The notes: generated from the sequence alone by a model not told the origin. 24,000 nucleotides of DNA from Paenibacillus faecis (GCF_008084145.1 NZ_VSDO01000004.1:300202-324201); one strand, 5' to 3'; positions 3,841 to 20,473 are shown, numbered from the stretch's first letter. Numbers and translations: made by a program.

Positions 3841-5073
3841 ATGCCGGAACATCCGCAATTCAAGGAATTTAAGGAGCAGCTCAAGGCGTTGATTCGCCGC
3901 CATTCGGACCGGGGCTTCTTGCCTTACGGCGGCAGTAATCGGGTCGGTGCGGAAATGGTGGCGATCCTGGAACAAGCCGAAGCTATGGACGACCCCGTCC
4001 TGGCTTTTGATATCGAGATTATGTTGGTTAAGGAAGGAATCAAACTTCTTTCCCACGCCGATGATTCATCAGGGTCCCTGGGAGAAGCGATCCGTTTCAG
4101 CAGCCAAGCGCTTGCCGCCCTATGCGAGACGGCGGATGAAGCTAACCGGAAATACTTTTTCGAAACCCTTCTCAAGACTGCCAAACTTCAGGGAATGAGG
4201 GATTGGGCCGATTTTGGCTTTCGTCTGTTAAAAGCCGCGGTCGTGTTGGTTCGCGATGAAAAGCAGGCGCAAAAAGTCTACGAGGTGTGCGGAAGTTTCG
4301 GGACAACGTTTAGCGGCTCCAAATACCCGGATGAGCATTTGATCACTTATCAGATTGTGGAGCGGCTTGAGGGACCGGAGGCGTCAGACCGGTACCTGAT
4401 GAAGAATCTGGAAGTGTTCGAGGTCAGGGAACTGGCCGTCAACAAGGCGTTGGAAAGAAAAGACTATGCGTTGGCCGAGCAACTATGCGTTCAGGCGATG
4501 TCCCAAAGAAAAGAGTGGGGTGACCGCAACCTCAAATGGGCCCAATTCCTGGAGTCGATCTATACGGAAACCAACGACTCAGAGAAGCTGGAGGAGGTTG
4601 TTCATTACATCCTGCTCCTTGGCAAAACATTGTATTACCCGAAGCTTAAGCTGCTTTATGAAGCGAAGGGGATTTGGGAGCAAAAACGGGAGCCGCTGCT
4701 GCAAGAGCTTTCCACACAGCTTATGTCTCAGGATTACGCCTCCCTGCTGAATCAGGCCGGAGAGTTTGAGAAGTTGCTGGACCTTCTCCGTGAGCGCAAG
4801 TATCTAATTCAGTACTACGGGAAGCGGGTAGCCAAGGATTTTCCGGAAGAGACTTATCTTCTGTATGAGGCGTTTATTTTGGATCAAGCGAAGGAGGCGA
4901 CGGAGCGAAGAAGGTACAGGGAAACCTGCAAGCTTCTCCAAGAATACTTTGAGGCGGGTGCCCGGGAGGAGAGTCTGCGGTTGCTGGACCGGTTGAGTGA
5001 GATGTATCCGCGGCGCCCGGCCATGCAGGACGAACTGGACAAGCTCAAGAAGAAGCTGGAGAAGCGGAAATAG
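3841..5073 (+). CDS. Hypothetical all-alpha (repeat or TPR-like) protein, 410 aa
   Basis: ATG 3841 follows AACAGGAGGG. The ORF is long and uninterrupted with a K/E-rich helical composition. I could not recognise a catalytic motif or family. Confidence 0.65.
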   Translation: MPEHPQFKEFKEQLKALIRRHSDRGFLPYGGSNRVGAEMVAILEQAEAMDDPVLAFDIEIMLVKEGIKLLSHADDSSGSLGEAIRFSSQALAALCETADEANRKYFFETLLKTAKLQGMRDWADFGFRLLKAAVVLVRDEKQAQKVYEVCGSFGTTFSGSKYPDEHLITYQIVERLEGPEASDRYLMKNLEVFEVRELAVNKALERKDYALAEQLCVQAMSQRKEWGDRNLKWAQFLESIYTETNDSEKLEEVVHYILLLGKTLYYPKLKLLYEAKGIWEQKREPLLQELSTQLMSQDYASLLNQAGEFEKLLDLLRERKYLIQYYGKRVAKDFPEETYLLYEAFILDQAKEATERRRYRETCKLLQEYFEAGAREESLRLLDRLSEMYPRRPAMQDELDKLKKKLEKRK

Positions 5074-5121: not shown

Positions 5122-5958
5122 TTACGAGGACAACTCCACCTCATCGGCATTGGGACTAACCTCGTCCCCGTACCGCTCCAACGCTTTGGTGGACGCCTCC
5201 AGCATTCTCCGCTTCAAGTAGTCGCCCTCCAGAATCCGCACCCGTTTGCCGAGAAAACGGATTTTGGACAGGAGATACTCCACCTCGTCCCCCAGAACGC
5301 AGACGCGGAGGCGATAGGTGCCTTGCTCTTCATCGTATTCGACGGTTTTCTCGAAGCAGGAAAAAGCGTACAAAATGCGCGACAACTCTTTGTGGTATTC
5401 CCGGACCACCTCCAGGACGGTTTCCGTCTTTCGCGAGTCCAGCGTCCGGGCGATTTCCTCATAGACCTGGTCGGCGGCGGCCGGGTCCAGCGGTTCGGGG
5501 GCGATGGAGATCAATTTGCTCAGCCGGGTGCTCATGAGGGCATGGCGGCGCAGATCGTACCAGAGCAGATACCACTCCCTTTTGACCATGGAATATTCCA
5601 GCTTGTAAGCAAGCCCCGAACGATCGGGCTGTACCCGGCCGCGCTTGACCTGGAACGAGATCCGGATGCCGCTCCGCTCGACGATATGTCGGCGAAGGAT
5701 GCGCAGCAGCGGATGATAGACCTGTTTCTCCGCGCTTTTCGCCTTTTCGGTCAGATAATCGGAGGTGCTCAGCTCCTCTATGCTTTGCAGCAGCCCCTGC
5801 AGCTTTTGCCGGGTTTCCGGGGTAAAGGCCTCTTCGGCCGCCGGATGCTTCAGCATTTTTTTCAGCCAGGCCCGTTCGTGCGCGGTGACCATAAACGTGC
5901 CGGAATCGTCCAGACGGGAGATGACCTGGTAGTTAAAAATTTTCTCAAACGGATTCAT
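5122..5958 (-). CDS. WYL-domain protein (279 aa) without an obvious N-terminal HTH
   Basis: The WYL core reads ...LAYKLEYSMVKREWYLLWYDLRRHALMSTRLSKLISI. The C-terminal WCX-like region reads ...LLSKIRFLGKRVRILEGDYLKRRM. The ATG at 5958 (MNPFEK) follows GGAGAT and overlaps the upstream gene by 14 nt; the ORF-track start at 5988 lies inside the upstream gene. Confidence 0.75.
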   Translation of the reverse strand: MNPFEKIFNYQVISRLDDSGTFMVTAHERAWLKKMLKHPAAEEAFTPETRQKLQGLLQSIEELSTSDYLTEKAKSAEKQVYHPLLRILRRHIVERSGIRISFQVKRGRVQPDRSGLAYKLEYSMVKREWYLLWYDLRRHALMSTRLSKLISIAPEPLDPAAADQVYEEIARTLDSRKTETVLEVVREYHKELSRILYAFSCFEKTVEYDEEQGTYRLRVCVLGDEVEYLLSKIRFLGKRVRILEGDYLKRRMLEASTKALERYGDEVSPNADEVELSS

Positions 5959-7264
5959 AATAGGCCTGAATCTCCTTCCACTCGGCAATCATTTCGCGGC
6001 GAAAATAAAGCGGTTCGAGCACCTCGCAGCTGGAGCCGAAACTCCGAAGCCACGGCTTGATTTCGGTTGTGCCGTTAACCTTGATCTCGTAGATGAAGCT
6101 CTCCTCTTCCTCGGCGACGATTTGCCCCCATTGACCTTGCAGCAGGACGCGCTCCCTGACAAAGTTGGGTTCGAAATGACCGGGATTGAAAAAGCGGGCC
6201 CGCACCGTAACCGGCCGTCCGGTATCGAGCAGCCAGCTGTACCTCATCCTCTCCTCCAGTGCGGCCGCTTTCTCCGCAAATACCTGCTCGGCCACCGGGT
6301 CCTCCTCCTCGAGCTGGGTCATCCCTTCCATCCGGTATTTGCGGATGCCCTCTCTGCCGGAGGCGAGCAAATACCAGCGCCCGTATTGGTGATCGTAAAC
6401 GACCTTCAGGGGGAGGGTCTTCTCCAATTTCCCTTCCGATTCCCGTTCGAACAAGGGATTCGTATTTTGCGCGGCGTAACTTTTGTCGGCTTTGGGCGAA
6501 AAATACAAAAACCGCACCCGCCGCCGGTGCCGGATCGCGTCCAGAAGCGTGAACAAATGCGCCTCATCCAGAATCCGCGAATAATAGTGGTATTTATACA
6601 AAAAATGGTCCAGCGCCAGTGGCTCGGCCTGGTTTCGCAGCAGGTGCTTCTTTAGGCCGTCGCGGAGAAGATATCCCTGAACGGAGGGGATCTGCGTATT
6701 GGCCATCACATCCACGAAGTCGTACAGGTCGTAAAGCTCCTCTTCCGTCAATTCCCGCACCAGGTCGTTGTCCAACCGGTAGCGGTAGGGGCGGGAGGCG
6801 GACTCCTTGCGGATGACACCGACCTCTTCCAAATATTTCAGATCCGACCGAATCGTCTTCTCGTCGGGGAGCGGGATGTCGGCGGGGAGGCTGCCGCAGC
6901 AGTAGTCCATCAGCTCCATCGCCGTCAGCGCCTGGTCGTTCAGCGCGGCCAGAAGGAGCGAGTAGCGCACCGATTCCGATCCCTTCAGCGATTTCGCGCG
7001 GAACAGAAAGAGCAGCATCGGGTCGGCCGACTCGTAGTAATTAAAGCGGATCGCCTCCGCGAATTCCTTGCTCTGCTCCTGCGGCAGCTGCTGATACATC
7101 GTGCCGACGATATCCTTCAGCCGGCGCAGCGTCTTGTCGAACGTATGGACGGAGATACCGAGACGTTCGGCGAATTGCTGCCTGCTGTAGGCCCCGCTGG
7201 TCAGCACGAGCATCCGCAGAAACTGGATTTCCTTATCGAAGCTTTCTTTTGCCACCTCAACCAC
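5945..7264 (-). CDS. HTH-WYL-WCX transcriptional regulator (PafB/PafC, BrxR, CapW-type architecture), 439 aa
   Basis: The N-terminal HTH reads YSRQQFAERLGISVHTFDKTLRRLKDIV. A second winged-helix-like segment reads LTAMELMDYC...IRSDLKYLEEVGVIRKE. The WYL core reads VVYDHQYGRWYLLASGREGIRKYRMEGM. The C-terminal WCX reads IKPWLRSFGSSCEVLEPLYFRREM. The start is GTG 7264 or GTG 7255. Confidence 0.8.
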   Translation of the reverse strand: MVEVAKESFDKEIQFLRMLVLTSGAYSRQQFAERLGISVHTFDKTLRRLKDIVGTMYQQLPQEQSKEFAEAIRFNYYESADPMLLFLFRAKSLKGSESVRYSLLLAALNDQALTAMELMDYCCGSLPADIPLPDEKTIRSDLKYLEEVGVIRKESASRPYRYRLDNDLVRELTEEELYDLYDFVDVMANTQIPSVQGYLLRDGLKKHLLRNQAEPLALDHFLYKYHYYSRILDEAHLFTLLDAIRHRRRVRFLYFSPKADKSYAAQNTNPLFERESEGKLEKTLPLKVVYDHQYGRWYLLASGREGIRKYRMEGMTQLEEEDPVAEQVFAEKAAALEERMRYSWLLDTGRPVTVRARFFNPGHFEPNFVRERVLLQGQWGQIVAEEEESFIYEIKVNGTTEIKPWLRSFGSSCEVLEPLYFRREMIAEWKEIQAYYESV

Positions 7265-7273
7265 CTGTTTCCT

Positions 7274-7287
7274 GATTATGTATAATC
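7274..7287. promoter_or_regulatory. Perfect palindrome GATTAT-GT-ATAATC in the 38-nt gap upstream of the HTH-WYL gene (candidate operator or internal promoter)
   Basis: It is the only symmetric element between the VWA stop (7303) and the WYL start (7264). It contains TGTATAAT on the + strand and CATAAT on the - strand. The function is inferred only. Confidence 0.25.
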
Positions 7288-7302
7288 CTATTTTAACAGG
7301 CG

Positions 7303-9126
7303 TCAGTCCATTCGGAAAACTTTGCCCTTGGGCACGAAGGGAAGATGGTGGCCTTTCGGAATCAGGAAAGCGTGCTCGCGGCGGATGCTCACCCGGTCGC
7401 AGTAGCCGTCCGTGATGATCAACAACGGGCCGCTTTTCGGAAAATCCCCGGCATGCTCGAGCAGATCGATGGCCGGCTGCAGGATTGTTCCGCCCCTGCC
7501 TTTGACGGAGACGCGGTCCGCAATCGCTTCCGGCGCGAGGTATCCTTGATCATAGACGGCCGCGTCGCAAAACACGACCCGGACGAGCGGCACATCCCGG
7601 GCCATGCTGTAGCTGGCGATCGCCCCAAGGGCCTTGCCCAGCAGCTTGGTGTCCATGGAACCGGAGGTATCCAGAACCACCCCGAAGGTGCGGCCGTCCT
7701 CGGCTCCCGCATCCGGCACCCAGCGGGGGCGGGGAATATCGGGGGTGGACGCTTGCCGGCGGCTGATCCTGGCGTAAGTCCGGACTTTTTCCAGCGGGGA
7801 AAAGTAGTTGTCGAACCACTTCGCCAGTTCCACGTCCCACAGGATCGGGGGCTGGGACAAGGCCCGGATCTCCTCGATCAGACCCGCCGGCAGGAAGCCC
7901 CGGTTTTGGTCAAAATGATAATCGAGCCCTTGGCTAAGACAGCTCCGATAAAATTCATCCAGTGTCAGCCCGTCTTTTCGGTCCCACCAATCGGGGACCT
8001 TCGGCTCCAGAATATCGCCCGTTCCGACGCCGCGAAAAGTCGCGACTTTCCGGTACAGCCGCATGTCCGTGACGATCCGGTCGTAAACGGATTCCGCCGA
8101 CAGTCCTTTAAGCTCCGGGTCATGCAGGCCTCCCACCCGCGGAAAGGCGCCCAACCCCATTTCCATAAGCCACCCGTTGATGACATAGTCGCAGGCGACA
8201 TTCCACAGATAGGGGTCACGCCCTTCCGCGCGGGCATGGTGCCGTAGTCCGACGTGCAGAAATTCGTGGGCGAGCACAAAACGGCATTCCTGCTCGTCCA
8301 GCCCGGCTGCAGGGTTGACGTAGATTTCCTTGGCCTCGGCATCGACGGCGGCCACCGAAATCGACAGGCGGGTGCAGAGCAGAGGATCCTCAATGATCCG
8401 GAAGTCCGCCGCCATCGCGCCCATCAGCGGGTAACTGCTGACAAACCAGTTACGGGCTTTCATTGCGGGCGTTAAAATATCGCGGTTTGCGCCGAGGTAA
8501 GCTTCATATCCCGCCGATACGTTGACCGCGCTCGTCACGGCCATGGCGAGCCCTTTGCCCAGCAAATCCTGCCAGTTGACGTTCTTGTTACCCCAGTAAG
8601 AGCGGTCGGAAGCCCTTGAGCTTAGGAGCATATCCTGGTGTCCGGGCCCAGCCGTGCCCAAGTTATGAAAGGAAGGGGGAAGCCCCTGGTCGATGAAGCT
8701 GCGATAGAGATCTTCTTCGGCCCCCTTTCCGGAAGGGATCTCTACCGACCCGTTCATCCCCTCAGGGGGCTTGCCCAGCCGCATATCGTATAGAAACTTG
8801 GCGATAAAAGCGTCGCAGGCCGTGTTCCACATGTCCTGCCGTTCCATTACCTTGAAATGCCCGAAACCTAGATGCAGAAGAGCATGGGCCAGAATGTAAA
8901 TCCATTCTTCGGGCAGGGCCCTGCGTTTCGGATGAACATGGATATACCCGCTGCTTGTCGTGACCGCCCAGCCGTTATCCGGACAGAGATTGCCCTCCAT
9001 GCGCACAAAATGAGCGTGCGACGCGAGCGGGGCAAACATCGGGTGACGGGAGATAAGCCGCAGCCCCTCCTCATAAGCCCGTGTGGCCGGGTCCATTTCT
9101 CCGGATTTTTGTTTTTGTTTTCCCAT
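7303..9126 (-). CDS. VWA-domain protein with two tandem DUF2201-type putative metallopeptidase modules (partner of the MoxR ATPase), 607 aa
   Basis: There is an internal duplication. Module 1 reads LAHALLHLGFGH...WNTACDAFI, with HALLH at nt 8872-8886 and the Glu lost. Module 2 reads LAHEFLHVGLRHH...WNVACDYVI, with HEFLH at nt 8254-8268. The C-terminal VWA carries the MIDAS motif VVLDTSGSMD (7657-7671). The ATG at 9126 lies 6 nt after the stop of the upstream ATPase gene. Confidence 0.85.
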   Translation of the reverse strand: MGKQKQKSGEMDPATRAYEEGLRLISRHPMFAPLASHAHFVRMEGNLCPDNGWAVTTSSGYIHVHPKRRALPEEWIYILAHALLHLGFGHFKVMERQDMWNTACDAFIAKFLYDMRLGKPPEGMNGSVEIPSGKGAEEDLYRSFIDQGLPPSFHNLGTAGPGHQDMLLSSRASDRSYWGNKNVNWQDLLGKGLAMAVTSAVNVSAGYEAYLGANRDILTPAMKARNWFVSSYPLMGAMAADFRIIEDPLLCTRLSISVAAVDAEAKEIYVNPAAGLDEQECRFVLAHEFLHVGLRHHARAEGRDPYLWNVACDYVINGWLMEMGLGAFPRVGGLHDPELKGLSAESVYDRIVTDMRLYRKVATFRGVGTGDILEPKVPDWWDRKDGLTLDEFYRSCLSQGLDYHFDQNRGFLPAGLIEEIRALSQPPILWDVELAKWFDNYFSPLEKVRTYARISRRQASTPDIPRPRWVPDAGAEDGRTFGVVLDTSGSMDTKLLGKALGAIASYSMARDVPLVRVVFCDAAVYDQGYLAPEAIADRVSVKGRGGTILQPAIDLLEHAGDFPKSGPLLIITDGYCDRVSIRREHAFLIPKGHHLPFVPKGKVFRMD

Positions 9127-9132
9127 AATCGA

Positions 9133-10194
9133 TCAGGCTTCCTTCTTCTGCACAAGTCTGGGCAAGTCCCGAACGATCTCCACCAGGAACCAATCCGGCA
9201 GACTCTCGCCGGCTTCGTCCCTGGCCACGGCCAGTTGGGCGATTTCGAGACTGATCGCGCTTAAATTTTTGAGCAGGGCCTTGGCGCGGTGGGCCAGCTT
9301 CTTATGATGTTCGGCGAGCGCGTCCTTGGATTCCGGCAGCTCCTTGATCAGGTGAGCCCGGAAAGACTGGGCCATAAAGTAAAGCACATCCCGGTCCTCC
9401 GGCTGGTGGGGCCAGTTCGCTCCGCCTTCGATAATCTCATGCAGCTTGTATTTATAATGGCTTTGCTTATAAAAAGCCTTCAGCTGCCCGGCGTGATGCG
9501 GCGATAGACAGCCCGTAGCAAGCACTTCCAGGGTATCCGGCCGCAGCCGATCCCCGTATTCCTTCAGCGCATCGCTTAACATATGCCACGATCTTGGCGT
9601 GGAGAACGGTTCCTCGTGCTTCGGCGGCTGAACCCACAGATGATCCGGGCGCGTCTCGATATATTGAATGACCAGGGGGTGGAGCTCGTTCTCGTAAGCC
9701 CACTCCAGCCATTCGCGGTGGGAAACCTTAAGCTGCACATGAAACATGCGGTTCATGAGCGCGGACGACATCGGCTTCACAATCGCGCTGTCCTGCGCCC
9801 GGTTTCCGGCTCCAATGACGACCGAGCCTTCCGGCAGACGGTATTCGCCGACGCGTTTTTCCAGAATCAAGCTGTAAAAAGCTTTCTGTACCTCGTGCGT
9901 GCAGGCGTTCAACTCATCCAGAAACAGGCAGTACGGCTCGTTTCGGGCGATCATGCTCGGCGGGCAAAACCGGCTCACCCCGCCGACGATTTGCGGCACC
10001 CCGATGAGGTCTTCCGGTGCCAGCTGGCTGCCGAGCAGCGAGACGCAAGGCAAGCCGACCAGATCGGCAAACCGCTGAACCAGCGAGGATTTTCCCACGC
10101 CCGGCGGCCCCCAGATAAACACCGGGCGGACGACGGCTACGTTTAATAGCAGCTCCATTAATTGCTTGGATGTTACAGAGGATGAAATATTCAT
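9133..10194 (-). CDS. MoxR-class AAA+ ATPase (CbbQ/NorQ/AAA_5-like), 353 aa
   Basis: Walker A reads FIWGPPGVGKSS (nt 10087-10110) and Walker B reads CLFLDELN. The sensor and Arg-finger region reads VIGAGNRAQDSAIVKPMSSALMNRM. It is immediately followed by a VWA partner, as in CbbQ/CbbO and NorQ/NorD pairs. Confidence 0.85.
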   Translation of the reverse strand: MNISSSVTSKQLMELLLNVAVVRPVFIWGPPGVGKSSLVQRFADLVGLPCVSLLGSQLAPEDLIGVPQIVGGVSRFCPPSMIARNEPYCLFLDELNACTHEVQKAFYSLILEKRVGEYRLPEGSVVIGAGNRAQDSAIVKPMSSALMNRMFHVQLKVSHREWLEWAYENELHPLVIQYIETRPDHLWVQPPKHEEPFSTPRSWHMLSDALKEYGDRLRPDTLEVLATGCLSPHHAGQLKAFYKQSHYKYKLHEIIEGGANWPHQPEDRDVLYFMAQSFRAHLIKELPESKDALAEHHKKLAHRAKALLKNLSAISLEIAQLAVARDEAGESLPDWFLVEIVRDLPRLVQKKEA

Positions 10195-10236
10195 GCTTTA
10201 TAATGATTTCCTTCCCTAAAAATTAACGTTATGAAC

Positions 10237-10245
10237 ATGATACCA
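10237..10245 (-). promoter_or_regulatory. Possible extended -10 (TGGTATCAT on the - strand) for the moxR-vwa-wyl operon
   Basis: The reverse complement of 10237-10245 is TGGTATCAT, about 40 nt upstream of ATG 10194. There is no convincing -35. Confidence 0.25.
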
Positions 10246-10431
10246 TAGGGTCCTTGAGGCGCAGGCCCGAAAAGATGGCTATACCCGTTTTGTCCCAAAA
10301 GGGGCCGGTTGCCGCGGACGGGACGGGGAGGAACCTTGGTCAGCGGTCGGCACCTCATTGGAGTTGTAATTAACCCGAGAGGGCTAACGCCTGTAACAGC
10401 CTTCCTCTGAAACCGGGCAGGGGGATAAGTG

Positions 10432-10640
10432 AATAAGAGCCTTTTGCGGCGCGATTTTGTCGAATTTGGCTCTTTGGCGTGAAATAGCGGTCTTTTGGGG
10501 CCTTATTTTAGAGAAAGTCGGGCAAAAACCGGATTTTGGGCTCGCACCAGAGAAATAAGGCCCTTTCTGGCCGCTATTTTTCCCGAAAACGCAAATCGGG
10601 CCGAAATAGCGGCCCAAAATGCCGCTATTGTGGCGGGCGG
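10432..10640 (+). repeat. Repeat family 2, copy 1: about 210-bp structured element built from AATAGCGG/CCGCTATT and AAATAAGGCC/GGCCTTATTT inverted units
   Basis: It aligns collinearly with 18576-18784 in the same orientation, for example ATTTTGTCGAATTTGGC, GAAATAAGGCC and GGCCGAAATAGCG. It contains nested inverted repeats, for example AAATAGCGGTC...GGCCTTATTT against AAATAAGGCC...GGCCGCTATTT. Confidence 0.8.
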
Positions 10641-10805
10641 CCGGGCGGACCGGGGAATTGGCGGCTCGGATCGATCGGCTCGTCACCATCCCCCTCAAAA
10701 ACCGGCTAAATTTTCCCCTCGTAATACTTTTGCCATGTTCGCGCGCGTAAAAATGAGCGAAGATAGGTTCACAAGGTCATCGCCGCAAGGGGACGGCCGA
10801 GTGAG

Positions 10806-10941
10806 ATCTTCGAGGCGCCTGGACGGGATCCTTCGCCTTTTAAGCGACTGGCCGTTGGTTCGAATCCAACTTCCGCCTAACGGCGGAATAGCTCAGAGGT
10901 AGAGCAGTTTATGTGACCTGTCCGCCTTTTTCCTCGAAGAT
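10806..10941 (+). ncRNA. yrlA: Y RNA 1, YrlA-type: Ro-binding-like basal helix plus a circularly permuted tRNA-like domain
   Basis: The basal stem ATCTTCGAGG (10806-10815) pairs with CCTCGAAGAT (10932-10941). A second stem pairs GGACGGG (10821-10827) with CCTGTCC (10918-10924), across the internal loop CGCCT / GCCTTTTT. Inside are a T-arm GTTGG-TTCGAAT-CCAAC (10854-10870), a closed acceptor-like stem TTCCGCC-TAAC-GGCGGAA (10871-10888), then TA and a D-arm GCTC-AGAGGTA-GAGC (10891-10905). It sits directly upstream of rsr. The exact 5' and 3' ends are unknown. Confidence 0.8.
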
Positions 10942-10965
10942 GAGTTGCATCAAATGCAGGAACGC

Positions 10966-11064
10966 GCGCGAGGCGCCTGAGAGGGTTACTTCGACTAATT
11001 AGGGATTAGTAATGATCGTGCCGGAGGGCACAGCAGCCTTCTCAACAAGCTTTCTTCCTCGCGC
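10966..11064 (+). ncRNA. Y RNA 2 (small, YrlB-like): same basal architecture with no tRNA-like module
   Basis: GCGCGAGG (10966-10973) pairs with CCTCGCGC (11057-11064). GAGAGGG (10979-10985) pairs with CCTTCTC (11037-11043). It shares the 5' motif GAGGCGCCTG...GGGTTACTTCG with the neighbouring Y RNAs. Internal hairpins are ACTAAT-TAGGG-ATTAGT and GTGCC-GGAG-GGCAC. Confidence 0.6.
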
Positions 11065-11090
11065 ACCCGTTCCCAGCACATCTAAATAAT

Positions 11091-11205
11091 ACCGGTGAGG
11101 CGCCGGGGCGGGTTACTTCGCCATCCAAGCGCACTTATGGAATTACCGGGCTTTACGGCAGGTTCGACTCCTGCACCGAACCCGCCCCTCTTTTTCCTCA
11201 CCGGT
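11091..11205 (+). ncRNA. Y RNA 3: same basal architecture plus a T-arm-like hairpin
   Basis: ACCGGTGAGG (11091-11100) pairs perfectly with CCTCACCGGT (11196-11205). GGGGCGGG (11105-11112) pairs with CCCGCCCC (11181-11188), across the loop CGCC / TCTTTTT. It has the GGGTTACTTCG motif and the T-arm-like GCAGG-TTCGACT-CCTGC (11158-11174). Confidence 0.65.
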
Positions 11206-11267
11206 GTTATCTAAATATTCCGTTGGGCGTCATTGCACTCACACACGGATATAGGAGGTTATTTAAA

Positions 11268-12773
11268 ATGAGTTTCGCCCAAAAATTGTTCGGTCCGTTC
11301 AGACCGACCACTCGCAACAAAGATCATTATCCCGCTTATACGCGGTCTGCGGAGGAACAGTACCTGCAGACTTTGCTGACCAATACGATGAGCAATACGT
11401 TTTATGCCGATCAAAAAGAACTCCTGAGCGATGCCGAGCAGCTCCACCATGAAATGGCGGCGGCCAACCCGACGTTTATGGCAAAAGCGCTCGTGTTCGC
11501 CCGCAACACCGGCCTGATGCGCCTGCAGCCGATCTTCGGCTTGGCGGTGCTCTCGGCCTACCGGCCGGATTTGTTCGCCAAGGTGTTCCCGCAGGTCGTG
11601 CGGATTCCTTCCGACCTGTTCGACTTCCTGACCATTCTGAAGGGTCAGGGTCGGGGCGAGGGCGGCCGTGCGGTCAAGCGCCAGGTGAACCACTTCCTGG
11701 CCGGCGTCAGCGAATACTGGGCCGTCAAATACAACGGCCGCGGCCGCGGCTACAGCCTGGGTGACGTGATCGCCACGGCCCATCCGAAGCCGGCGGACTT
11801 GAAGCAGCAGGCGCTGTTCCGGTACCTGCGCGGCTGGGAGGCCGACCTCGAGCTGCTGCCGCAGGTGGCGGCGCTGGAGCGGCTGAAGCGCGCCGCGAGC
11901 GAAAGCGAGCAAATCGAGTGGATCGGCCGCGGCAAGCTTCCGTACGAGACGGTCACCGGCGCGATTCAGCCGACCAAGGCCGTGTGGGAGGCGTTGCTGT
12001 ACCAGATGCCGACCTTTGCGCTGCTCCGCCACCTGAACGCCCTGCAGCGGGCGGGCGTCCTCGACGACAAGCGGAACCTGGACTACGTCATCGCGCGGTT
12101 CAACGATGAGGAGGCGCTGCGCAAGGCGCGCATCCTGCCGTTCCGGTTCGCGACGGCGTTCCGTCAGGTCGAGCATCCCGATCTGCGCGACGCGATGCGG
12201 GACGCGGTGGACCTGACTTTCGGCAACCTGCCGGATTTGGGTGAGGACACGGCGATTTTCCTGGACATCTCCGGCTCGATGGAGGGACAATACCTGGAGA
12301 CCGGTTCGGTATTTGCCCTGGCCCTGTATAAGAAGACGCAGGGGAACTCGCTGTTCTGGCTGTTCAACCACGAGGTCCGCGACGCGAGACCTTCGAAGCG
12401 CGACAGCATTCTCGGCCAGGCGCAGCATATCCGCGCCGGCGGCGGGACCGATACCGGTGCCCCCGTGCGCAAGCTGCTCCTGGAGCGCAAGCGGGTGGAC
12501 CAGATCATTATCATTACGGATGAGCATCAAAACACCGGCAGCCCGTTCTACCGGGAGCTGGCCCAGTACCGTGCCGCCATCAACCCGGAAGTCAAGGCGT
12601 TCATCGTGGACATCGCTCCTTACCGGTACGCGATGGTGCCGGAAATGGACCGCAACACCTTTTACATCTACGGTTGGAGCGACACGGTCCTGTCCTACAT
12701 TGCCCAGACGCTGCAAGGCTACGCGTCCATGACGAAGCAAGTGGATGCCATGGACCTCGACAAGAAGGAGTGA
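11268..12773 (+). CDS. rsr: Ro60 orthologue Rsr (TROVE domain + C-terminal vWA with MIDAS), 501 aa
   Basis: ATG 11268 lies 9 nt after GGAGG (11254-11258). The N-terminal TROVE-like sequence reads ...YLQTLLTNTMSNTFYADQKELL...AKALVFARNTGLMRLQPIFGLAVL. The vWA MIDAS reads AIFLDISGSM...GGGTDTG...IIITDE. It is flanked upstream by Y-RNA-like genes. The ORF-track TTG at 11223 has no RBS. Confidence 0.9.
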   Translation: MSFAQKLFGPFRPTTRNKDHYPAYTRSAEEQYLQTLLTNTMSNTFYADQKELLSDAEQLHHEMAAANPTFMAKALVFARNTGLMRLQPIFGLAVLSAYRPDLFAKVFPQVVRIPSDLFDFLTILKGQGRGEGGRAVKRQVNHFLAGVSEYWAVKYNGRGRGYSLGDVIATAHPKPADLKQQALFRYLRGWEADLELLPQVAALERLKRAASESEQIEWIGRGKLPYETVTGAIQPTKAVWEALLYQMPTFALLRHLNALQRAGVLDDKRNLDYVIARFNDEEALRKARILPFRFATAFRQVEHPDLRDAMRDAVDLTFGNLPDLGEDTAIFLDISGSMEGQYLETGSVFALALYKKTQGNSLFWLFNHEVRDARPSKRDSILGQAQHIRAGGGTDTGAPVRKLLLERKRVDQIIIITDEHQNTGSPFYRELAQYRAAINPEVKAFIVDIAPYRYAMVPEMDRNTFYIYGWSDTVLSYIAQTLQGYASMTKQVDAMDLDKKE

Positions 12774-12779
12774 TCCCCT

Positions 12780-13577
12780 ATGACCCAGGAATCGTCCGAA
12801 TTCCGCCCCGTCATCCTGAACGAGCTTCGGCGCATTGAAGAGCAGGAAGGGGTTCGTATTCTGTACGCCTGCGAGTCGGGAAGCCGCGCTTGGGGCTTCC
12901 CTTCGCGGGACAGCGACTACGATGTCCGGTTTCTTTATATCCGGCCTCTGGACTGGTATCTATCCATTTTTGAGGGACGGGATGTGATCGAGCGGCCGAT
13001 CAGCGATCAACTGGACATCAACGGTTGGGACTTGAAGAAGGCCTTGCAGCTATTCCGCAAATCGAACCCGCCCTTATTGGAATGGCTGTATTCTCCGATA
13101 CAATATTTGGAGAAGTATTCCGTGGCGGAGCAGATCCGCCGCATATCCCCGCTGACGTTTTCGCCAAAATCATGCATATACCATTATCTCAACATGGCGA
13201 AGGGGAATTTCCGGGGATACCTGCAAGGGGAACGGGTGAAGATCAAGAAGTATTTCTACGTACTGCGGCCGGTGCTCGCCTGCGGCTGGATCGAGAAGCA
13301 CAATACGATGCCTCCGGTGGAGTTCGATAAACTGGTGGAGGACTTGATCCCGCCGGAAAGCGCACTGATGGATGCGGTTCAACGCCTGCTTGCTCGCAAA
13401 AAAGCCGGGGAAGAGCTTGATCTGGAGCCTAAGTTGACCGCCATCCACGAATATTTGGAGGAGCGCTTGGATTACTTCGAGGAGGCGGCCGCCCAATTCA
13501 GGACAGAACCGTTGCAGCTCGAAGACGAGCGGTTGGACGCCCTCTTTCGCTCCGCCTTGCGCGAGGTATGGGCGTAG
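12780..13577 (+). CDS. Pol-beta-superfamily nucleotidyltransferase (RlaP-like, RNA-ligase/repair-associated NTase)
   Basis: The NTase motif reads LYACESGSRAWGFPSRDSDYDVRFLY (GS...DxD). The ATG lies 6 nt after the rsr stop, with GAAGGAG upstream. The family assignment is from memory of the PF10127-type sequence pattern. Confidence 0.75.
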   Translation: MTQESSEFRPVILNELRRIEEQEGVRILYACESGSRAWGFPSRDSDYDVRFLYIRPLDWYLSIFEGRDVIERPISDQLDINGWDLKKALQLFRKSNPPLLEWLYSPIQYLEKYSVAEQIRRISPLTFSPKSCIYHYLNMAKGNFRGYLQGERVKIKKYFYVLRPVLACGWIEKHNTMPPVEFDKLVEDLIPPESALMDAVQRLLARKKAGEELDLEPKLTAIHEYLEERLDYFEEAAAQFRTEPLQLEDERLDALFRSALREVWA

Positions 13578-13623
13578 AGGCGGGCAACCGCGTACATATT
13601 TTCACATTGGAAGAAGGTTCATT

Positions 13624-14892
13624 ATGGCTATCGTACAGGTTACATCCACGAATCCGAAGTTTTCATTTTTGATCAAGAAAAATCCGCAATCCGGTATGCA
13701 GCTGCGCTCGGTTCGCAAAGGGACGGCGTACGGCTGGTATAGCGGTGAACAGACCTTTAACGTGTATTTTAAAGACGCGGACAACGATATTTCGTATAAG
13801 CAGCATGAGGGGGAGACTTTCGAGTACCTGAACGTGTCGAGATACAATACGCCGCTGTTTCCGTTGAACGCGATCGGCGAGTTCTTTTCCGCTCCGTTAA
13901 AAGCGCGGCATGAGCAGGATACGGAGGGGTATGAGCATACCTTTTTCATCAATATGATTCATATCGAACGGTTGCCGTATATCGATTTTTTCAAGAAGCA
14001 CTTGCAGGATTTCTCATTCGAAATCACCCACCGGGCGCACAAAAGCTATGCCCTGACCGTTAGGACGCACAAAAGCCTGTACCAGCTCCTTCACGCGGTG
14101 AGCGTATTGTGCTTGTTCCTGTCGATGTTCGGCAATGAGCACGTGGATATTTCGGACAGCATTCTGGACAAATACATCAAGAGCCTCCATGTGATCGACG
14201 CGCCGTTTTACATTCGGAGCTTGTTCGTACGGAATTTTCTGGCTTCCCGGGACCGGTTCAAAAAATACAAGGCGGAGCTCGAGAAGACGGACCGCTACAG
14301 CATTCGCTTTGCTTTTGGCGGCACGGCGCTGCAGCGGCGGAACTACATCGGAAGCGCGCTCGCTTTTGACAAGTCGATTCTCGACGTGGGCTGCGGGGAA
14401 GGATTCTACGCGATTCCTTTTGCCGGAAAAATCGAAGGCAGCTATTACGCGGTCGATATCAACGAGGAGCTGTTGGAGCAAGTCCAGCGGAAGGCCGCGC
14501 GAAAAGAGCTGGACAATATCATCACGTTCGCTTCGATCGATCTTTTTCTGGAGAGCTACAACGGGGAACGGGTCGATGTGATTTTGACCGAGGTCATCGA
14601 GCATATGAGCCAGGAGGAAGCGGAGCGACTGATCCGGCAAATCTGCGGGCAGGTGGATTTCGACCGGTTGATCATCACGACGCCGAATGCCGACTTTAAC
14701 CGCTATTATGAGTTGGAGGGTTTCCGGCACGACGATCACAAATGGGAGCTGGGCGGAGCTTCGTTCCAGGCCTGGATCGGCGATCTGTTGAAGCGCTTCG
14801 CGAACTTGCAGTATGAATTTGTGGCCATCGGCGACGAGGTCGACGGGATCACCACGACCCAAGGGGTTATTTTGAAGAGAGAGGGGGCCTGA
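13624..14892 (+). CDS. hen1: Bacterial Hen1, RNA 3'-terminal ribose 2'-O-methyltransferase
   Basis: The N-terminal Pnkp-activating domain begins MAIVQVTSTNPKFSFLIKKNPQSGMQ... The C-terminal SAM-methyltransferase carries ILDVGCGEGFYAIPFA, the metal motif LTEVIEHM and ...FRHDDHKWE. It ends 3 nt before pnkp. Confidence 0.9.
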   Translation: MAIVQVTSTNPKFSFLIKKNPQSGMQLRSVRKGTAYGWYSGEQTFNVYFKDADNDISYKQHEGETFEYLNVSRYNTPLFPLNAIGEFFSAPLKARHEQDTEGYEHTFFINMIHIERLPYIDFFKKHLQDFSFEITHRAHKSYALTVRTHKSLYQLLHAVSVLCLFLSMFGNEHVDISDSILDKYIKSLHVIDAPFYIRSLFVRNFLASRDRFKKYKAELEKTDRYSIRFAFGGTALQRRNYIGSALAFDKSILDVGCGEGFYAIPFAGKIEGSYYAVDINEELLEQVQRKAARKELDNIITFASIDLFLESYNGERVDVILTEVIEHMSQEEAERLIRQICGQVDFDRLIITTPNADFNRYYELEGFRHDDHKWELGGASFQAWIGDLLKRFANLQYEFVAIGDEVDGITTTQGVILKREGA

Positions 14893-14895
14893 TCC

Positions 14896-17517
14896 ATGGA
14901 GATCCGGACGAAGGTTCATACGGTTTTTATGCTGATCGGCTCTACCGAATGCGGCAAAACCACGTTCGCCAAGGAAGTGTTGGTTCCGGGGCTGCGGTTT
15001 GAAGATCGGGACAAAAACATCAAGGCCAACGTGCAATATCTGTCCTCCGACCAGATTCGCCAGGAGGTGCTCGGCCATGATTACGACAAGTACGACCAGG
15101 TGATGCTGGAGGCCAGCGAGCAGGCGTTTCATCTTCTGTTCGAGCGGTTGAAAATGGCGACTTCTTTTCCGGTCAACGCGGAGTTCGTGGTGGTCGATAC
15201 CACCGGGTTGTCCGAGGATTTCCGGGCCAAAGTGAAGGATATCGCCTATCGGAACAATTACAATCTGGAAGCGATCGTGTTCGATTACCGGAAGCGGGAC
15301 GATTACTACGCCTCGGAGCGCTCGAAGAAGCTCATCACCAACCATATCAACCGGCTGAAAAAAGAGGTCCTGGGCTCGCTGGCCCGCGAAGGGTACGACA
15401 AAATTCATAAGGTGCGGGCTAAGGATTTTTACCGGTCCGAGGAAGGGAAGGCGAATCCGGAATACCGCGTCGTCATTGAAAATCTGGAGGATTATCTGGG
15501 CGGCGTTCTCCCGCAGGATCAGCAGTATATTATCATCGGCGACGTCCATGAATGTGTAGGCGATTTGCAGGGGCTGCTGCGCGACCACGGCTTCGGGCTG
15601 GAGGACGGCAGGCTGTCGGCGCCCGAGCGATTGCGGCGGACGAAGATCGTCCTGGTGGGGGACTGGATCGACAAAGGCCGGCAAACGAAGGAGATCATCG
15701 AATTCCTTTACGAAAACCGGGAGTATTTCTACTTTGTGCTCGGCAACCATGAAAATTTTGTGGGCAAATATTTGAACGGGGAAATTCAGGGCGCCGATCA
15801 TGAACTGGTCCGCTCGTATTTCGACTCGATTGAGGTATTGCGCAGCGATGCGGAACTTCTGGAGAAATTCCGGCAACTGGTGTCGCTGTCGAAGCCGTTT
15901 TACCGGTATGTCGGGGTCCAAGGTCCTTCGTTTTATGTCACCCATGCGCCGTGCCGGAAAAAATACATCGGGAAGCTGGACACAAACTCGGCGCGGCACC
16001 AGCGGAATTTCCGGATCGACCGGGAGGCTCCGCTCGAGGAGCAGCTGGCCTTTCTGGAGGAGGAAGCGGTGTCCAATCATCCGTACCATGTGTTCGGACA
16101 TATTGCGGCGAAGCAGCCGTTCCGCATCCGCAACAAAATCCATATCGATACCGGCAGCGTTCACGGGAATCAGTTGACTTCGGTCGGCATCTCGTACAAA
16201 CCGTTCCTGAAGTCCCGCAAGTCCGCCCAGGCGGTCATCGGGGGAGGGGAAGAGCTGAAGACGCTGTTCAAGCGGGAGCGGAAGGTGTCGGTGGCGGACC
16301 TGGAAGAGGACGAAATCCGCCGGCTGCATTACTGCTCGCGGCATAAGATCAACTTTATCTCCGGGACGATGTCGCCGGCCGATAAGGACGAAGCGAGCGG
16401 CGAGCTGGAGTCTCTGGAGCGCGGACTGGCTTATTTCAGGGACCGCGGCGTGACGCAAGTCGTACTGCAGCCCAAATATATGGGCTCGAGATGCAATGTG
16501 TATCTGCATAAGGAGCCGGAGCGTTGCTTTGCCGTCAGCCGGAACGGATACAAGATCAATCAGGTGGACTTGTCGGAGATCTTCGGCAAGCTGCTGCGGA
16601 AGTTCGGCGCCTATATGGAGGAGCGTCAGATTGCCATGCTTATGCTGGACGGGGAGCTCCTGCCGTGGAAGGCGCTGGGCGAAGGCCTGATCGAACGGCA
16701 GTTTAAGCCGATCGGGGCAGCGCTGGAATCCGAGCTTGCGTTTCTGCGGCATAACGGCTTCGAGCAGGCGTTCGGGAAGCTGCTGGAGGACTATGAAGCG
16801 AGCGGCTTTGAGCAGGACCAGTTCCGCGTTTCGAAGTCCGCCCTGAGCGACAAATACGGTCCGAGCGTGTACCAGAACTACAAGCATGTTCATGAGCTCC
16901 GCGACACCTATGTCCCGCTGGAAGAACATGTCCAAGCTTACGAGACCTATAAGCGTCAGTTGGAATGGTATGCGGCGGACGGCGAAGGCGAAGTGGAGCT
17001 GGAGTTGGAGCTGGAGCTGGAGTACAAACCGTTTGCCCTGCTCAAAATCGTCTACGAGGACGGGCGGGAGCAATTGCCGGATTGGACGACGTCCGACATG
17101 TACGGGTTCCTGTCGGAGGACGAAGCGCTGGCGCTGGACTTGTCCGCGCCGGACAGTCTGGAGCAAGCGGAGCGGTACTTCGCCGAACTGACGCTGGAGA
17201 AGCATATGGAGGGCGTCGTTATCAAACCGGAGGTGTGGACCGGCGCCACCGTGCCTTACATGAAGGTGCGGAACCCCGAGTACCTGTCCATCATCTACGG
17301 CTACGACTACCGGTTCCCGCACAAGTACCGCAAGCTGCTCAAGCAAAAGAACATCAGCCAGAAGCTGCGCGCCTCGCTGAACGAGTACCGGCTCGGGATG
17401 AGCCTGCTGGGCGTTCCTTTCGCCGACATCGCCCCCGGGCACGCGGCGTATCAGGAAATCGCCGCCAACCTGCTGTTTGAAGTGGCGCAGGAGAAGGCCA
17501 TCGATCCGCGGCTGTAA
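14896..17517 (+). CDS. pnkp: Polynucleotide kinase-phosphatase-ligase Pnkp (trifunctional RNA end-healing and sealing enzyme), 873 aa
   Basis: The kinase P-loop reads GSTECGKTT (aa 15-23). The calcineurin-type phosphoesterase motifs are IIGDVHEC, GDWIDKG and GNHE. The adenylyltransferase/ligase domain carries QPKYMGSR (Lys about 527). The length and domain order match Clostridium thermocellum Pnkp. Confidence 0.9.
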   Translation: MEIRTKVHTVFMLIGSTECGKTTFAKEVLVPGLRFEDRDKNIKANVQYLSSDQIRQEVLGHDYDKYDQVMLEASEQAFHLLFERLKMATSFPVNAEFVVVDTTGLSEDFRAKVKDIAYRNNYNLEAIVFDYRKRDDYYASERSKKLITNHINRLKKEVLGSLAREGYDKIHKVRAKDFYRSEEGKANPEYRVVIENLEDYLGGVLPQDQQYIIIGDVHECVGDLQGLLRDHGFGLEDGRLSAPERLRRTKIVLVGDWIDKGRQTKEIIEFLYENREYFYFVLGNHENFVGKYLNGEIQGADHELVRSYFDSIEVLRSDAELLEKFRQLVSLSKPFYRYVGVQGPSFYVTHAPCRKKYIGKLDTNSARHQRNFRIDREAPLEEQLAFLEEEAVSNHPYHVFGHIAAKQPFRIRNKIHIDTGSVHGNQLTSVGISYKPFLKSRKSAQAVIGGGEELKTLFKRERKVSVADLEEDEIRRLHYCSRHKINFISGTMSPADKDEASGELESLERGLAYFRDRGVTQVVLQPKYMGSRCNVYLHKEPERCFAVSRNGYKINQVDLSEIFGKLLRKFGAYMEERQIAMLMLDGELLPWKALGEGLIERQFKPIGAALESELAFLRHNGFEQAFGKLLEDYEASGFEQDQFRVSKSALSDKYGPSVYQNYKHVHELRDTYVPLEEHVQAYETYKRQLEWYAADGEGEVELELELELEYKPFALLKIVYEDGREQLPDWTTSDMYGFLSEDEALALDLSAPDSLEQAERYFAELTLEKHMEGVVIKPEVWTGATVPYMKVRNPEYLSIIYGYDYRFPHKYRKLLKQKNISQKLRASLNEYRLGMSLLGVPFADIAPGHAAYQEIAANLLFEVAQEKAIDPRL

Positions 17518-17529
17518 TGACGATGCACA

Positions 17530-17567
17530 AGAGCCTGAACCGCCGGGAGGGGGTTCAGGCTCTTTTT
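17530..17567 (+). terminator. Rho-independent terminator of the rsr-pnkp operon
   Basis: AGAGCCTGAACC (17530-17541) pairs perfectly with GGTTCAGGCTCT (17552-17563), a 12-bp stem followed by TTTT. It lies 13 nt after the pnkp stop. Confidence 0.8.
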
Positions 17568-17591
17568 GGGGCATCCGTGCCGCTCTGAATA

Positions 17592-18020: not shown

Positions 18021-18413
18021 TTACGCCCCGGTTTGCCCTTGCTGTTTCAACAGATCGCGGATTTCCGCGAGCAGCGCTTCCTCCTTGGACGGTTCGGGCG
18101 GGGCTTCCGGCTTCGGCGCCTCTTCCTTCCGTTTGAACCTGTTGAGTCCTTTCACAAACAGGAAAATGGAGAAAGAGATAATGAAGAAATCGATGACGGT
18201 CTGCAAAAAAGCGCCGTACAACAATTTCGTTTCCCCGTATTGAAAGATCAGGTCCTTGAAGTCGATGCCGCCCATCAAAATCCCGAATAGGGGCATCAGC
18301 ATGTCATTGACCAGGGAAGTTACGATTTTTCCGAAAGCGCCCCCGATAATGACCCCGATGGCCAGATCGAGGACATTGCCCTTCAGGGCAAAGGCTTTAA
18401 ACTCTTTCCACAT
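18021..18413 (-). CDS. mscL: Large-conductance mechanosensitive channel MscL
   Basis: [42 protein letters not shown]... is a textbook MscL N-terminus with TM1. ATG 18413 lies 9 nt after AAAGGTGGG; the ORF-track start at 18437 overlaps that RBS. Confidence 0.9.
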
Positions 18414-18575
18414 TCTAGTAAACCCACCTTTTTTCATATATTACAGGCAGTATACCATATAAGGTGTAGGGGAGAAATCCATAGCCATGGCGGAACGGAC
18501 GGGACGGGGCCTTTGCGAATGTACGGAAGGTGGTGCATACGGCGACCACTGTCTCCTGTTGGAGCTGGGCGGAGG

Positions 18576-18784
18576 AATAGCGGTCATTTGCGCCGTTATT
18601 TTGTCGAATTTGGCTAATCGGAGGAAAATAGCGGCCTTTTGGGCGCTTATTTTGGGGTAAAACGGGCCAAAACCTGATTTTGGGGCCGGTGAGAGGGAAA
18701 TAAGGCCTTTTTTGACCGCTATTTTGCTCGCGGAGCCGAATTTGGCCGAAATAGCGCCTCAAAAGACCGTTATTTGCGGCGGGG
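18576..18784 (+). repeat. Repeat family 2, copy 2 (same orientation as copy 1)
   Basis: It is collinear with 10432-10640. It lies in the divergent mscL/kptA intergenic region and ends 44 nt before the candidate kptA promoter. Confidence 0.8.
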
Positions 18785-18856: not shown

Positions 18857-18930
18857 GCAATCAAGGACAGGTTGGTAGAATCCGCCAACAGAACAATCAC
18901 AGCACAACCAACAGAACGAAGGGGGTGAAC

Positions 18931-20465: not shown

Positions 20466-20473
20466 GGGAAGAG

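Follow-up and report, generated by a model that had tools for sequence, protein, structure and literature searches.

We analysed a 24,000-nt stretch of the Paenibacillus faecis genome (GCF_008084145.1 NZ_VSDO01000004.1:300202-324201), here called the window, in whose numbering all positions are given. We interpret its central part as an RNA-damage response island made of three separable modules: an RNA repair operon, a pair of WYL regulators and an accessory AAA-VWA gene pair, which encodes an AAA+ ATPase and a protein with a von Willebrand factor A (VWA) domain. Genes were called from open reading frame (ORF) coordinates, Pfam profile searches and PADLOC models, and other genomic, metagenome and phage stretches, labelled L001-L161, were compared with the window. 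Eight protein genes, four on the minus and four on the plus strand, diverge from a ca. 1-kb intergenic region, as established by ORF listing and profile searches. This region spans 10195-11222, or extends to 11267 if Rsr starts at ATG 11268, a likely start because the L001 orthologue begins MSFAQKLFG. An initial annotation of positions 5122-17567 had already listed these genes with their spacings and the divergent region, together with three Y-RNA-like genes and a terminator; ORFs, profiles and folds showed all of them to be present. The features are as follows.

5122-5958, minus strand: WYLb, a short protein with WYL and WCX-like parts and no recognisable helix-turn-helix (HTH); ATG at 5958
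5945-7264, minus strand: WYLa, a transcription factor with HTH, WYL and WCX domains (Pfam)
7303-9126, minus strand: VWA protein of 607 aa, with DUF2201_N in two stretches and DUF2201 (the VWA domain) (Pfam)
9133-10194, minus strand: AAA+ ATPase of the MoxR/AAA_5 type (Pfam AAA_5, 3e-12)
10237-10247, minus strand: extended -10-like box TATGGTATCAT, ca. 45 nt upstream of the AAA start codon
10481-10634, no strand assigned: AATAGCGRC repeats in direct and inverted copies, clustered in a 487-bp spacer that separates the AAA gene from the control element
10706-10767, plus strand: conserved control element of ca. 60 bp, consisting of an A/T box, CGTAATACTTTTGCCATGTTCG, N9-10 and AAATGAGCGAAGATAGG
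10808-10939, plus strand: Y RNA-like gene 1, YrlA type, with T-arm- and D-arm-like hairpins
10966-11064, plus strand: Y RNA-like gene 2, YrlB-like, without a tRNA-like arm
11088-11208, plus strand: Y RNA-like gene 3, with a T-arm-like hairpin
11268-12773, plus strand: Rsr/Ro60-like protein with TROVE and vWA_Ro60 domains; the ORF opens at TTG 11223
12780-13577, plus strand: RlaP, a Pol-beta nucleotidyltransferase (Pfam RlaP, E 1e-98)
13624-14892, plus strand: Hen1, with Hen1_N (E 3e-106) and methyltransferase domains (Pfam)
14896-17517, plus strand: Pnkp, with Pfam AAA_33 (kinase), Metallophos (phosphatase) and PNKP_ligase (adenylyltransferase/ligase)
17530-17567, plus strand: intrinsic terminator of the repair operon, with a 13-bp stem (AAGAGCCTGAACC/GGTTCAGGCTCTT), a 10-nt loop and a T5 run
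18925-21349, plus strand: genes for the RNA 2'-phosphotransferase KptA/Tpt1, an ATP-grasp protein of the R2K clade and an ADP-ribosylglycohydrolase (ARH) (Pfam)

The four plus-strand protein genes are separated by gaps of 6, 46 and 3 nt, the last lying between Hen1 and Pnkp. Rsr scores above the Pfam gathering thresholds for both TROVE (5e-16; 59 bits against a cut-off of 23) and vWA_Ro60 (2e-6; 28.3 bits against 27.7), and far under the cut-off of the NCBIfam Rsr equivalog (88 bits against 900). Pnkp carries the P-loop GSTECGKT, the motifs GDVHE and GNHE, and KYMGSR (KxxG). Pnkp and Hen1 also fall under their NCBIfam equivalog cut-offs (TIGR04075, 194 bits against 750; TIGR04074, 73 bits against 340) and, judged by sequence, are a divergent subfamily. 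The stem of the terminator is GC-rich and is followed by TTTTT, as read directly from the sequence; a terminator consensus scan, whose loop limit is 8 nt, missed this 10-nt loop. No RtcR (the CARF-AAA+-HTH sigma-54 activator), RtcB or RtcA domain was found by Pfam in any window ORF. The domains thus support the reading of the plus-strand unit as a Y RNA-Rsr-RlaP-Hen1-Pnkp repair operon, as the initial annotation had it. An 1186-aa ORF on the minus strand (14014-17574), opposite Hen1 and Pnkp, is without relatives in 81 loci and almost certainly a compositional artefact.

In systems of this kind, the kinase and phosphatase of Pnkp heal broken RNA ends, which Pnkp then seals, and Hen1 2'-O-methylates the repaired junction so that it is not cut a second time. 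Rsr is a Ro60-like ring protein, and with Y RNA it forms a scaffold for handling structured RNA. The Pnkp/Hen1 system of Clostridium thermocellum and Anabaena, reportedly the work of the Shuman and Huang laboratories, likewise has adjacent pnkp and hen1 genes, a kinase-phosphatase-ligase Pnkp, and a Hen1 that joins an N-terminal (ligase-activating) domain to a methyltransferase; in contrast, the window sequences are divergent and their genes sit behind Y RNAs, Rsr and RlaP and are WYL-linked. A second point of comparison is the Salmonella rsr-yrlBA-rtcBA operon with its divergent regulator RtcR (Hughes et al. 2020, PMC7790460), in which, as here, an RNA ligase system shares its locus with Y RNAs and Rsr, and a ligand-sensing transcription factor is divergent. 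The window differs in having no RtcR or other sigma-54 enhancer-binding protein, no RtcB and no RtcA, in using Pnkp/Hen1 as the ligase and a WYL pair as the regulator, and in the addition of RlaP and AAA-VWA.

At gathering score, Rfam detected no Y RNA in the window or in six related loci. In E-value mode, the YrlA family (RF02553) matched the first unit at 10812-10931 with 39 bits (E 9e-7; gathering score 69), and units 2 and 3 gave no match. All three units share a common fold, comprising a terminal stem of 8-13 bp that contains the GAGG of a conserved 5' GAGGCGCC motif, an asymmetric internal loop with CGCC opposite UUUUU, and a second stem of 8-10 bp; tRNA-like arms occur in units 1 and 3 only. 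Fold z-scores were -2.4, -2.45 and -4.0 for units 1, 2 and 3, and homologues lie upstream of rsr in 19, 5 and 6 other loci, respectively. RNAalifold found compensatory changes in 18 of 35 pairs of unit 1 across 14 loci, and in 11 of 28 pairs of unit 3 across seven loci. The three units are genuine structured RNAs of Y RNA type whose divergence keeps them below the Rfam threshold. ARAGORN searches of the window and of 60 loci gave no tRNA-like gene linked to AAA-VWA.

The initial annotation had placed the two WYL proteins in the regulator slot. WYLa matches Pfam WCX (6e-13), WYL (3e-8) and, marginally, HTH_11 (4e-4). For WYLb, which has no Pfam match and no detected HTH, the PADLOC WYL model gave an E-value of 1.8e-10 over residues 77-259, and the motif WYLLWYD is present; for neither protein did sequence comparison detect a match to a solved structure. 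A WYLa alignment, used to scan metagenomes, retrieved 63 loci, whose six-frame translations were searched with hidden Markov models (HMMs), and in nearly all of them WYLb follows WYLa. Forty-seven of these extend 1.5 kb or more upstream and could be evaluated. An RNA-repair gene that is divergent from WYLa and ends less than 1.5 kb upstream was found in 43 of the 47, which bears out the proposed regulator slot; if the position is left open, a repair gene is present in 46 of the 47. The cassettes opposite WYLa vary (RtcB-RlaP, Rsr-RlaP-Hen1-Pnkp, RlaP-Hen1-Pnkp, SPFH(-RlaP), Rsr-RtcB-KptA and others), and relatives that use RtcB still have no RtcR. These gene neighbourhoods make it well supported that WYLa-WYLb is a dedicated regulator pair of shuffling RNA-repair cassettes. 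Because only one of the 63 WYLa loci fetched carries AAA-VWA, the pair belongs to the repair cassette and not to AAA-VWA. Later papers from the Aravind laboratory attribute cassette shuffling to RNA repair systems and predict WYL factors to be RNA-end sensors regulating RNA repair; since that prediction has already been made, WYL as regulator is not new as a concept. Thus, the repair operon with its WYL regulators is a member of a known, shuffling class of systems, with RtcR-like logic built from Pnkp/Hen1 and WYL. We found no relevant literature on WYL combined with Pnkp and Hen1, in a comparison to which Burroughs & Aravind 2016 did not belong.

A control element recurs in the regions between WYLa and the repair cassettes. 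In a k-mer enrichment analysis, CCATGTTC was present in 29 of 39 WYLa-divergent intergenic regions, compared with at most six in shuffles, and the consensus from about 45 aligned instances of the element reads A/T box, GTCGTAATACTTTCGCCATGTTCG, N10, AAATRAGCGAWGATAG. The element is always oriented toward the repair operon and typically lies 90-100 bp from the WYLa start; in the window, it lies ca. 40 nt before Y RNA 1. It includes a TG-N-TAGA-like -10 region and no good -35 box, and a scan of the divergent region for the sigma-70 consensus gave no promoter. We regard it as a candidate WYL operator and promoter that may resemble activator-dependent promoters such as PafBC targets. One promoter region would then drive the three Y RNAs, Rsr, RlaP, Hen1 and Pnkp, with WYLa/WYLb binding the 10706-10767 element and responding to RNA breakage products. 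Analogues for such sensing are RtcR with its CARF domain, which senses cyclic-phosphate tRNA halves, and WYL activators of the PafBC type, PafBC being the heterodimeric WYL activator of the mycobacterial DNA damage response. The two systems share a pair of adjacent WYL-WCX genes and promoters (predicted in our case) with an upstream element, a -10 box and no good -35; in contrast to PafBC, WYLb lacks an HTH and the predicted regulon is RNA repair. WYLa, WYLb and the ca. 60-bp element would constitute a testable RNA-damage-sensing circuit in Firmicutes, a counterpart of RtcR in Proteobacteria, with defined DNA sites and proteins on which binding and ligands can be studied.

The control element was also seen before SPFH/band-7 cassettes (L002 16968, L003 14276, L005 15623, L083-L084, L135-L136 and L139), where it is followed by a different conserved transcript start (GATAGAACCTGTAAGA...). 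This transcript may be the band-7-associated tRNA-like RNA that is reportedly mentioned in the abstract of the 2016 RNA-repair survey. The 487-bp spacer on the other side of the element has no homologue in the loci compared (L081, L089, L001, L002, L098 and L111). Exact copies of AATAGCGRC occur three times in this spacer and once more at 18627-18635, upstream of kptA, giving four where 0.42 are expected. The repeat is also present three times in the equivalent spacer of L081 (L081 9554-9736), and the two spacers do not align. As a general WYL operator AATAGCGRC was rejected: it clusters only in the window and L081 and is rare in the other ca. 140 loci. The repeats could be a lineage-specific operator or an element resembling repetitive extragenic palindromes (REP-like).

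On the minus strand, the AAA and VWA genes are separated by 6 nt, a 38-nt gap precedes WYLa, and WYLa and WYLb overlap by 14 nt, assuming that WYLb starts at ATG 5958. The AAA+ protein has the Walker A motif GPPGVGKS and the Walker B motif LFLDE. It had been described as CbbQ/NorQ-like, a label that we revise to MoxR/AAA_5-like, as the best PDB sequence matches are AAA domains of midasin (3e-9). The score against the bpMoxR model is below its cut-off, and there is no CbbQ_C match. The VWA protein had been credited with two metallopeptidase-like modules. Both modules are zincin-like, and only the second is intact. The second has a HELLH..H motif (HExxH plus a third metal ligand; H287, E288, H291 and H296 invariant among 50 sequences) and a PDB sequence match to the minigluzincin selecase MJ1213. 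The first, with the motif HCLLH...H, is a degenerate HxxxH zincin module without the catalytic Glu (H81, H85 and H90 invariant in 50 sequences). The metal ion-dependent adhesion site (MIDAS) of the VWA domain is complete and equally invariant (D486-x-S488-x-S490...T547...D573). For an AlphaFold 2 (AF2) model (pLDDT 79), the only folds matched were VWA, integrin I and Rea1-MIDAS. Invariance of the Walker A/B, HExxH and MIDAS motifs argues that AAA-VWA is, by prediction, catalytically competent.

The VWA protein is strongly conserved, being 98% identical to a metagenome protein and 87% to one from Paenibacillus macerans, and keeping 55-87% identity across at least eight phyla. Homologues occur in Bacillota, Cyanobacteria, Acidobacteriota, Chloroflexota, Planctomycetota, Myxococcota, Desulfobacterota and others, yet only 282 representatives of 50%-identity clusters were recovered at E<=1e-30 among 1.84 billion proteins. 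Such conservation would fit a conserved cellular target. By tblastn, the AAA gene adjoins the VWA gene in 77 of 80 genome loci, and several of the remaining ones are on cut or short contigs. A AAA_5-type ATPase beside a VWA protein with complete MIDAS is also the arrangement of the MoxR-VWA pairs NorQ/NorD, CbbQ/CbbO and RavA/ViaA and of midasin/Rea1, the last of which remodels a ribonucleoprotein (RNP), the pre-60S particle, through its MIDAS domain. The pair described here differs in that the VWA partner has two zincin-like modules, one with an intact HExxH, and none of the known MoxR-VWA substrates (Rubisco, NO reductase, fumarate reductase) is encoded nearby.

Characterised MoxR-VWA pairs insert cofactors and reactivate enzymes, and this is the starting point for one reading of AAA-VWA, as an activase or metal-insertion chaperone for the repair enzymes. 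Like NorQ/NorD, CbbQ/CbbO or CoxD/E, and without proteolysis, the pair would load or restore the Mn2+/Ni2+ sites of RtcB or of the Pnkp phosphatase, or would remodel Rsr through the vWA/MIDAS of that protein. RtcB and Pnkp are indeed metal-dependent, and Rsr does have its own vWA domain. However, the partner ligases are unrelated and differ in their metal sites, there is no tie to Rsr, which L002, L064, L146 and L151 lack, and a pure metallochaperone role would leave the invariant HExxH zincin motif unexplained. We consider this reading quite improbable.

To place the pair in its genomic contexts, a forward census was made of 80 genome loci from the scan, or 81 with the window, counting repair genes within 10 kb by sensitive six-frame HMM searches with added ligase families. 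AAA-VWA is the only invariant core among these loci, and the other neighbours are heterogeneous. Repair genes lie within 10 kb in 14 of the 81, usually as the adjacent gene, and of the 22 non-core neighbour clusters that recur most, about nine belong to RNA-repair families (RtcB, Rsr, WYLa, WYLb, KptA, SPFH, RlaP, R2K and ARH). The linked arrangements include the following, where > and < give gene direction.

Window: AAA>VWA>WYLa>WYLb, divergent from Y RNAs-Rsr-RlaP-Hen1-Pnkp
L089: Rsr<, then WYLa>WYLb>AAA>VWA>, then <Pnkp
L001: Rsr-RlaP-KptA-..-R2K<, then AAA>VWA>, <RtcB, then WYLa>WYLb
L002: Hen1-Pnkp-KptA..R2K-ARH<, then AAA>VWA> ... <RtcB-..-SPFH
L003 and L005: KptA<, then AAA>VWA
L009: AAA>VWA ... 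WYLb<WYLa<, then RtcB>SPFH
L012 and L015: AAA>VWA>Y RNA>Rsr>RtcB>WYLa>WYLb
L064: AAA>VWA>Hen1>Pnkp
L007: a divergent cassette with an Rnl1-type ligase and Pnk/HD

AAA, VWA, WYLa and WYLb are thus co-directional in both the window and L089, in different gene orders. Nine further AAA-VWA homologues with 64-67% identity were looked up, and six of them have RNA ligases nearby. Among these, a prfH-rtcB-AAA-VWA-nucleotidyltransferase operon has gaps of 0-4 nt (L146/L147), and its prfH is bona fide (TIGR03072, 223 bits against a cut-off of 167). The order AAA-VWA-rtcB occurs in three lineages, one homologue has a divergent cassette of T4 Rnl1-type ligase, Pnk-HD, Hen1 and kinase-phosphatase, and one has a PF09414 ligase, with Rsr at 6-8 kb. 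AAA-VWA is therefore found beside four unrelated RNA ligase families. The possibility that its adjacency to repair genes is a strain-specific accident is refuted, as many other genomes, too, have it in synteny with rsr, hen1/pnkp or rtcB, in varied arrangements. The gene set and spacing proposed for a minus-strand operon were confirmed, whereas the single unit resolves into two separable modules, AAA-VWA and the WYL pair.

L081, the closest relative of the island, is collinear with the window from WYLb to KptA at ca. 79% nucleotide identity and has no counterpart of window segment 7274-10718, that is, of AAA-VWA and the 487-bp spacer. Because L081 has the island without AAA-VWA and ca. 67 of 81 loci are solo, AAA-VWA is a separate, facultative two-gene module. 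In the window it forms an insertion between the control region and the WYL genes, which thereby come to lie directly downstream of it; with a gap of only 38 nt before WYLa, the WYL genes may be co-transcribed with AAA-VWA. The AAA start lies 119 bp (L001) and 92 bp (L002) from the control element, a geometry normally that of WYLa, and co-regulation of AAA-VWA with the repair operon is plausible.

Several observations weigh against a functional tie between AAA-VWA and RNA repair. No repair gene lies within 10 kb in ca. 67 of the 81 AAA-VWA loci, and the solo loci have no conserved partner or recurrent neighbour theme by Pfam analysis of 117 flanking proteins. The absence of the module from L081 and its rarity among WYLa loci belong here too, as do three of the nine further homologues, which are without repair genes, one of them beside Wadjet. 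In a neighbour-joining tree, the linked loci are found mainly in two clades, one of Paenibacillaceae and one of Clostridia, with L009 in addition, and links are looser outside Firmicutes; the linked loci therefore stand for far fewer independent events than their number. The TATGGTATCAT box upstream of AAA is kept in the window, L001, L002, L003, L005 and solo Brevibacillus loci, and because it is also present in the solo loci, AAA-VWA seems to bring its own promoter. Distant homologues, an AAA+ paired with a single-zincin VWA protein, occur as gp24/gp25 of phage N4 (L161 3718-6086), in PA5oct (L160 5971-7155) and in relatives from 263 phage records; the N4 and PA5oct pairs have no repair neighbours, though the homology is distant.

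These points suit an alternative in which AAA-VWA is an independent mobile stress chaperone-protease that shares insertion hot spots with repair cassettes and not their pathway. The ca. 67 solo loci with heterogeneous neighbours, the indel relative to L081 and the promoter-like box all speak for such independence, and so do the conflict genes found nearby (Wadjet, AbiEii-like AAA_21, toxin-antitoxin pairs and Imm32/SUKH). It would not account well for the tight co-directional operons, with gaps of 0-60 nt, formed by prfH-rtcB-AAA-VWA, AAA-VWA-rtcB and AAA-VWA-hen1-pnkp, for a linkage that persists through at least eight arrangements and four ligase families, or for the lack of any other functional theme recurring among the neighbours. 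We regard this alternative as rather unlikely, and a functional link of AAA-VWA to RNA repair as moderately probable. The tie is favoured over hitch-hiking because of the four unrelated ligase families, the tight operons, the persistence through rearrangement and the absence of another recurrent neighbour theme. The large solo majority suggests that the module has a self-sufficient activity on a conserved cellular target and was recruited by repair islands in some lineages.

In clostridial loci, AAA-VWA is often near Imm32 and SUKH/SMI1 immunity genes, YoeB/RelB pairs or Wadjet (JetABCD), for example at L144 7559-7843, L148 13210-14355, L151 11417-11942 and L157 9909-16587. These neighbours place AAA-VWA in conflict-type genomic neighbourhoods. 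A further reading would take it as an anti-phage or abortive-infection effector that is switched on by RNA damage and degrades host or phage proteins, with no part in repair. Besides the neighbours in some loci, it can draw on the common control of defence systems by WYL factors and on the distant homologues in phages. Yet neither protein matches PADLOC defence models beyond chance (the VWA protein not at all, the AAA+ only IetA, at E ~3e-3 over the P-loop region), the extreme conservation is atypical of defence sensors and effectors, and it is with repair cassettes, not with AAA-VWA, that the WYL pair is associated. This makes a defence role highly improbable.

Returning to the repair link, AAA-VWA probably serves as a facultative accessory that remodels or cleaves a protein obstacle on damaged RNA, RNPs or ribosomes, by a mechanism that we propose from the domains. 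An AAA+ motor is combined here with a MIDAS grip and with two zincin-like modules, one intact and one inactive, which points to ATP-driven protein extraction and cleavage. By conjecture, the substrate would be a conserved protein on damaged RNA, RNPs or ribosomes. The VWA MIDAS would grip this target by an acidic residue, traction would come from the AAA+ hexamer, and the intact HExxH module would cleave the target; its removal would clear the way for end-healing and ligation. As to the site of action, the prfH-rtcB context points to damaged ribosomes or translation complexes. PrfH-RtcB2 is a ribosome rescue and repair module (PMC9304027, PMC9223846), and the inclusion of AAA-VWA in the prfH-rtcB operon of L146/L147 is a direct contextual tie to the repair of toxin-damaged ribosomes; the window, in contrast, has no prfH or rtcB, and the published PrfH-RtcB work mentions no AAA or VWA partner.

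A more specific version of this idea, possible but held only tentatively, is that AAA-VWA is an ATP-driven extractor-protease and a so far unrecognised protein-level arm of RNA and ribosome repair. Its targets would be a bound ribotoxin, a stalled factor, or a trapped ribosomal or RNP protein on broken tRNA or rRNA complexes, and their removal would let whichever ligase is present (RtcB, Pnkp/Hen1 or Rnl1-type) reseal the RNA. If so, it would be a bacterial counterpart of Cdc48-Vms1 ribosome quality control or of pre-ribosome remodelling by Rea1/midasin. Bacterial RNA repair has been studied almost wholly as nucleic-acid enzymology, that is, as end healing, sealing and methylation. The presence of AAA-VWA beside four unrelated ligase families and in a prfH-rtcB operon suggests that a protein-remodelling or proteolytic step, too, is required when toxin-damaged RNA is repaired; for this step the module is a concrete, genetically tractable candidate, of relevance to specialists in RNA repair and ribosome rescue. 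We found no paper that links DUF2201/MoxR-VWA proteins with Pnkp/Hen1, RtcB, PrfH or Ro60, in a comparison that did not take in Burroughs & Aravind 2016 (PMC5062991), where a prior mention is possible.

A related pair, a MoxR ATPase with a metallopeptidase-vWA protein, has been described from group 2.2 jumbo phages. The laboratory behind the RNA-repair survey called it 'previously unrecognized' and proposed a role in virion assembly (Iyer et al. 2021, PMC7824862). That pair and N4 gp24/gp25 follow the same domain logic of an AAA+ ATPase with a zincin-vWA fusion; they differ from AAA-VWA in having one zincin module, ca. 25% identity and no RNA-repair neighbours. For the phage VWA-zincin protein, 'HNH endonuclease' is a widespread label, apparently a misannotation that has been passed on.

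The KptA-R2K-ARH genes start 1.4 kb past the Pnkp terminator, with mscL (18021-18437, minus strand) in between. Because KptA, R2K and ARH genes also lie within or beside the repair cassettes of L001, L002, L121 and L155, the island probably extends past 17567, as far as the KptA-R2K-ARH genes (18925-21349), which are probably its third unit. Directly after ARH, a LytTR response regulator and a GHKL histidine kinase (21430-23528, plus strand) show no sign of island membership. At the other end, beside WYLb, a 410-aa ORF (3841-5073, plus strand) has no Pfam or PADLOC match and is absent from L081 and L001.

Two further observations concern the surroundings of AAA-VWA. In Paenibacillus sinensis, a BsrG-family RNA (Rfam RF01412, 68 bits, above gathering) lies between VWA and rtcB (L002 12023-12268, plus strand). 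In addition, SEC-C-motif proteins are among the immediate AAA-VWA neighbours in three otherwise unrelated loci, a small sample. An 83-aa SEC-C protein is encoded directly upstream of prfH-rtcB-AAA-VWA (L146 6297-6548), and in the window a TPR protein with a terminal SEC-C zinc motif (2133-3518, plus strand) is encoded two genes from WYLb.

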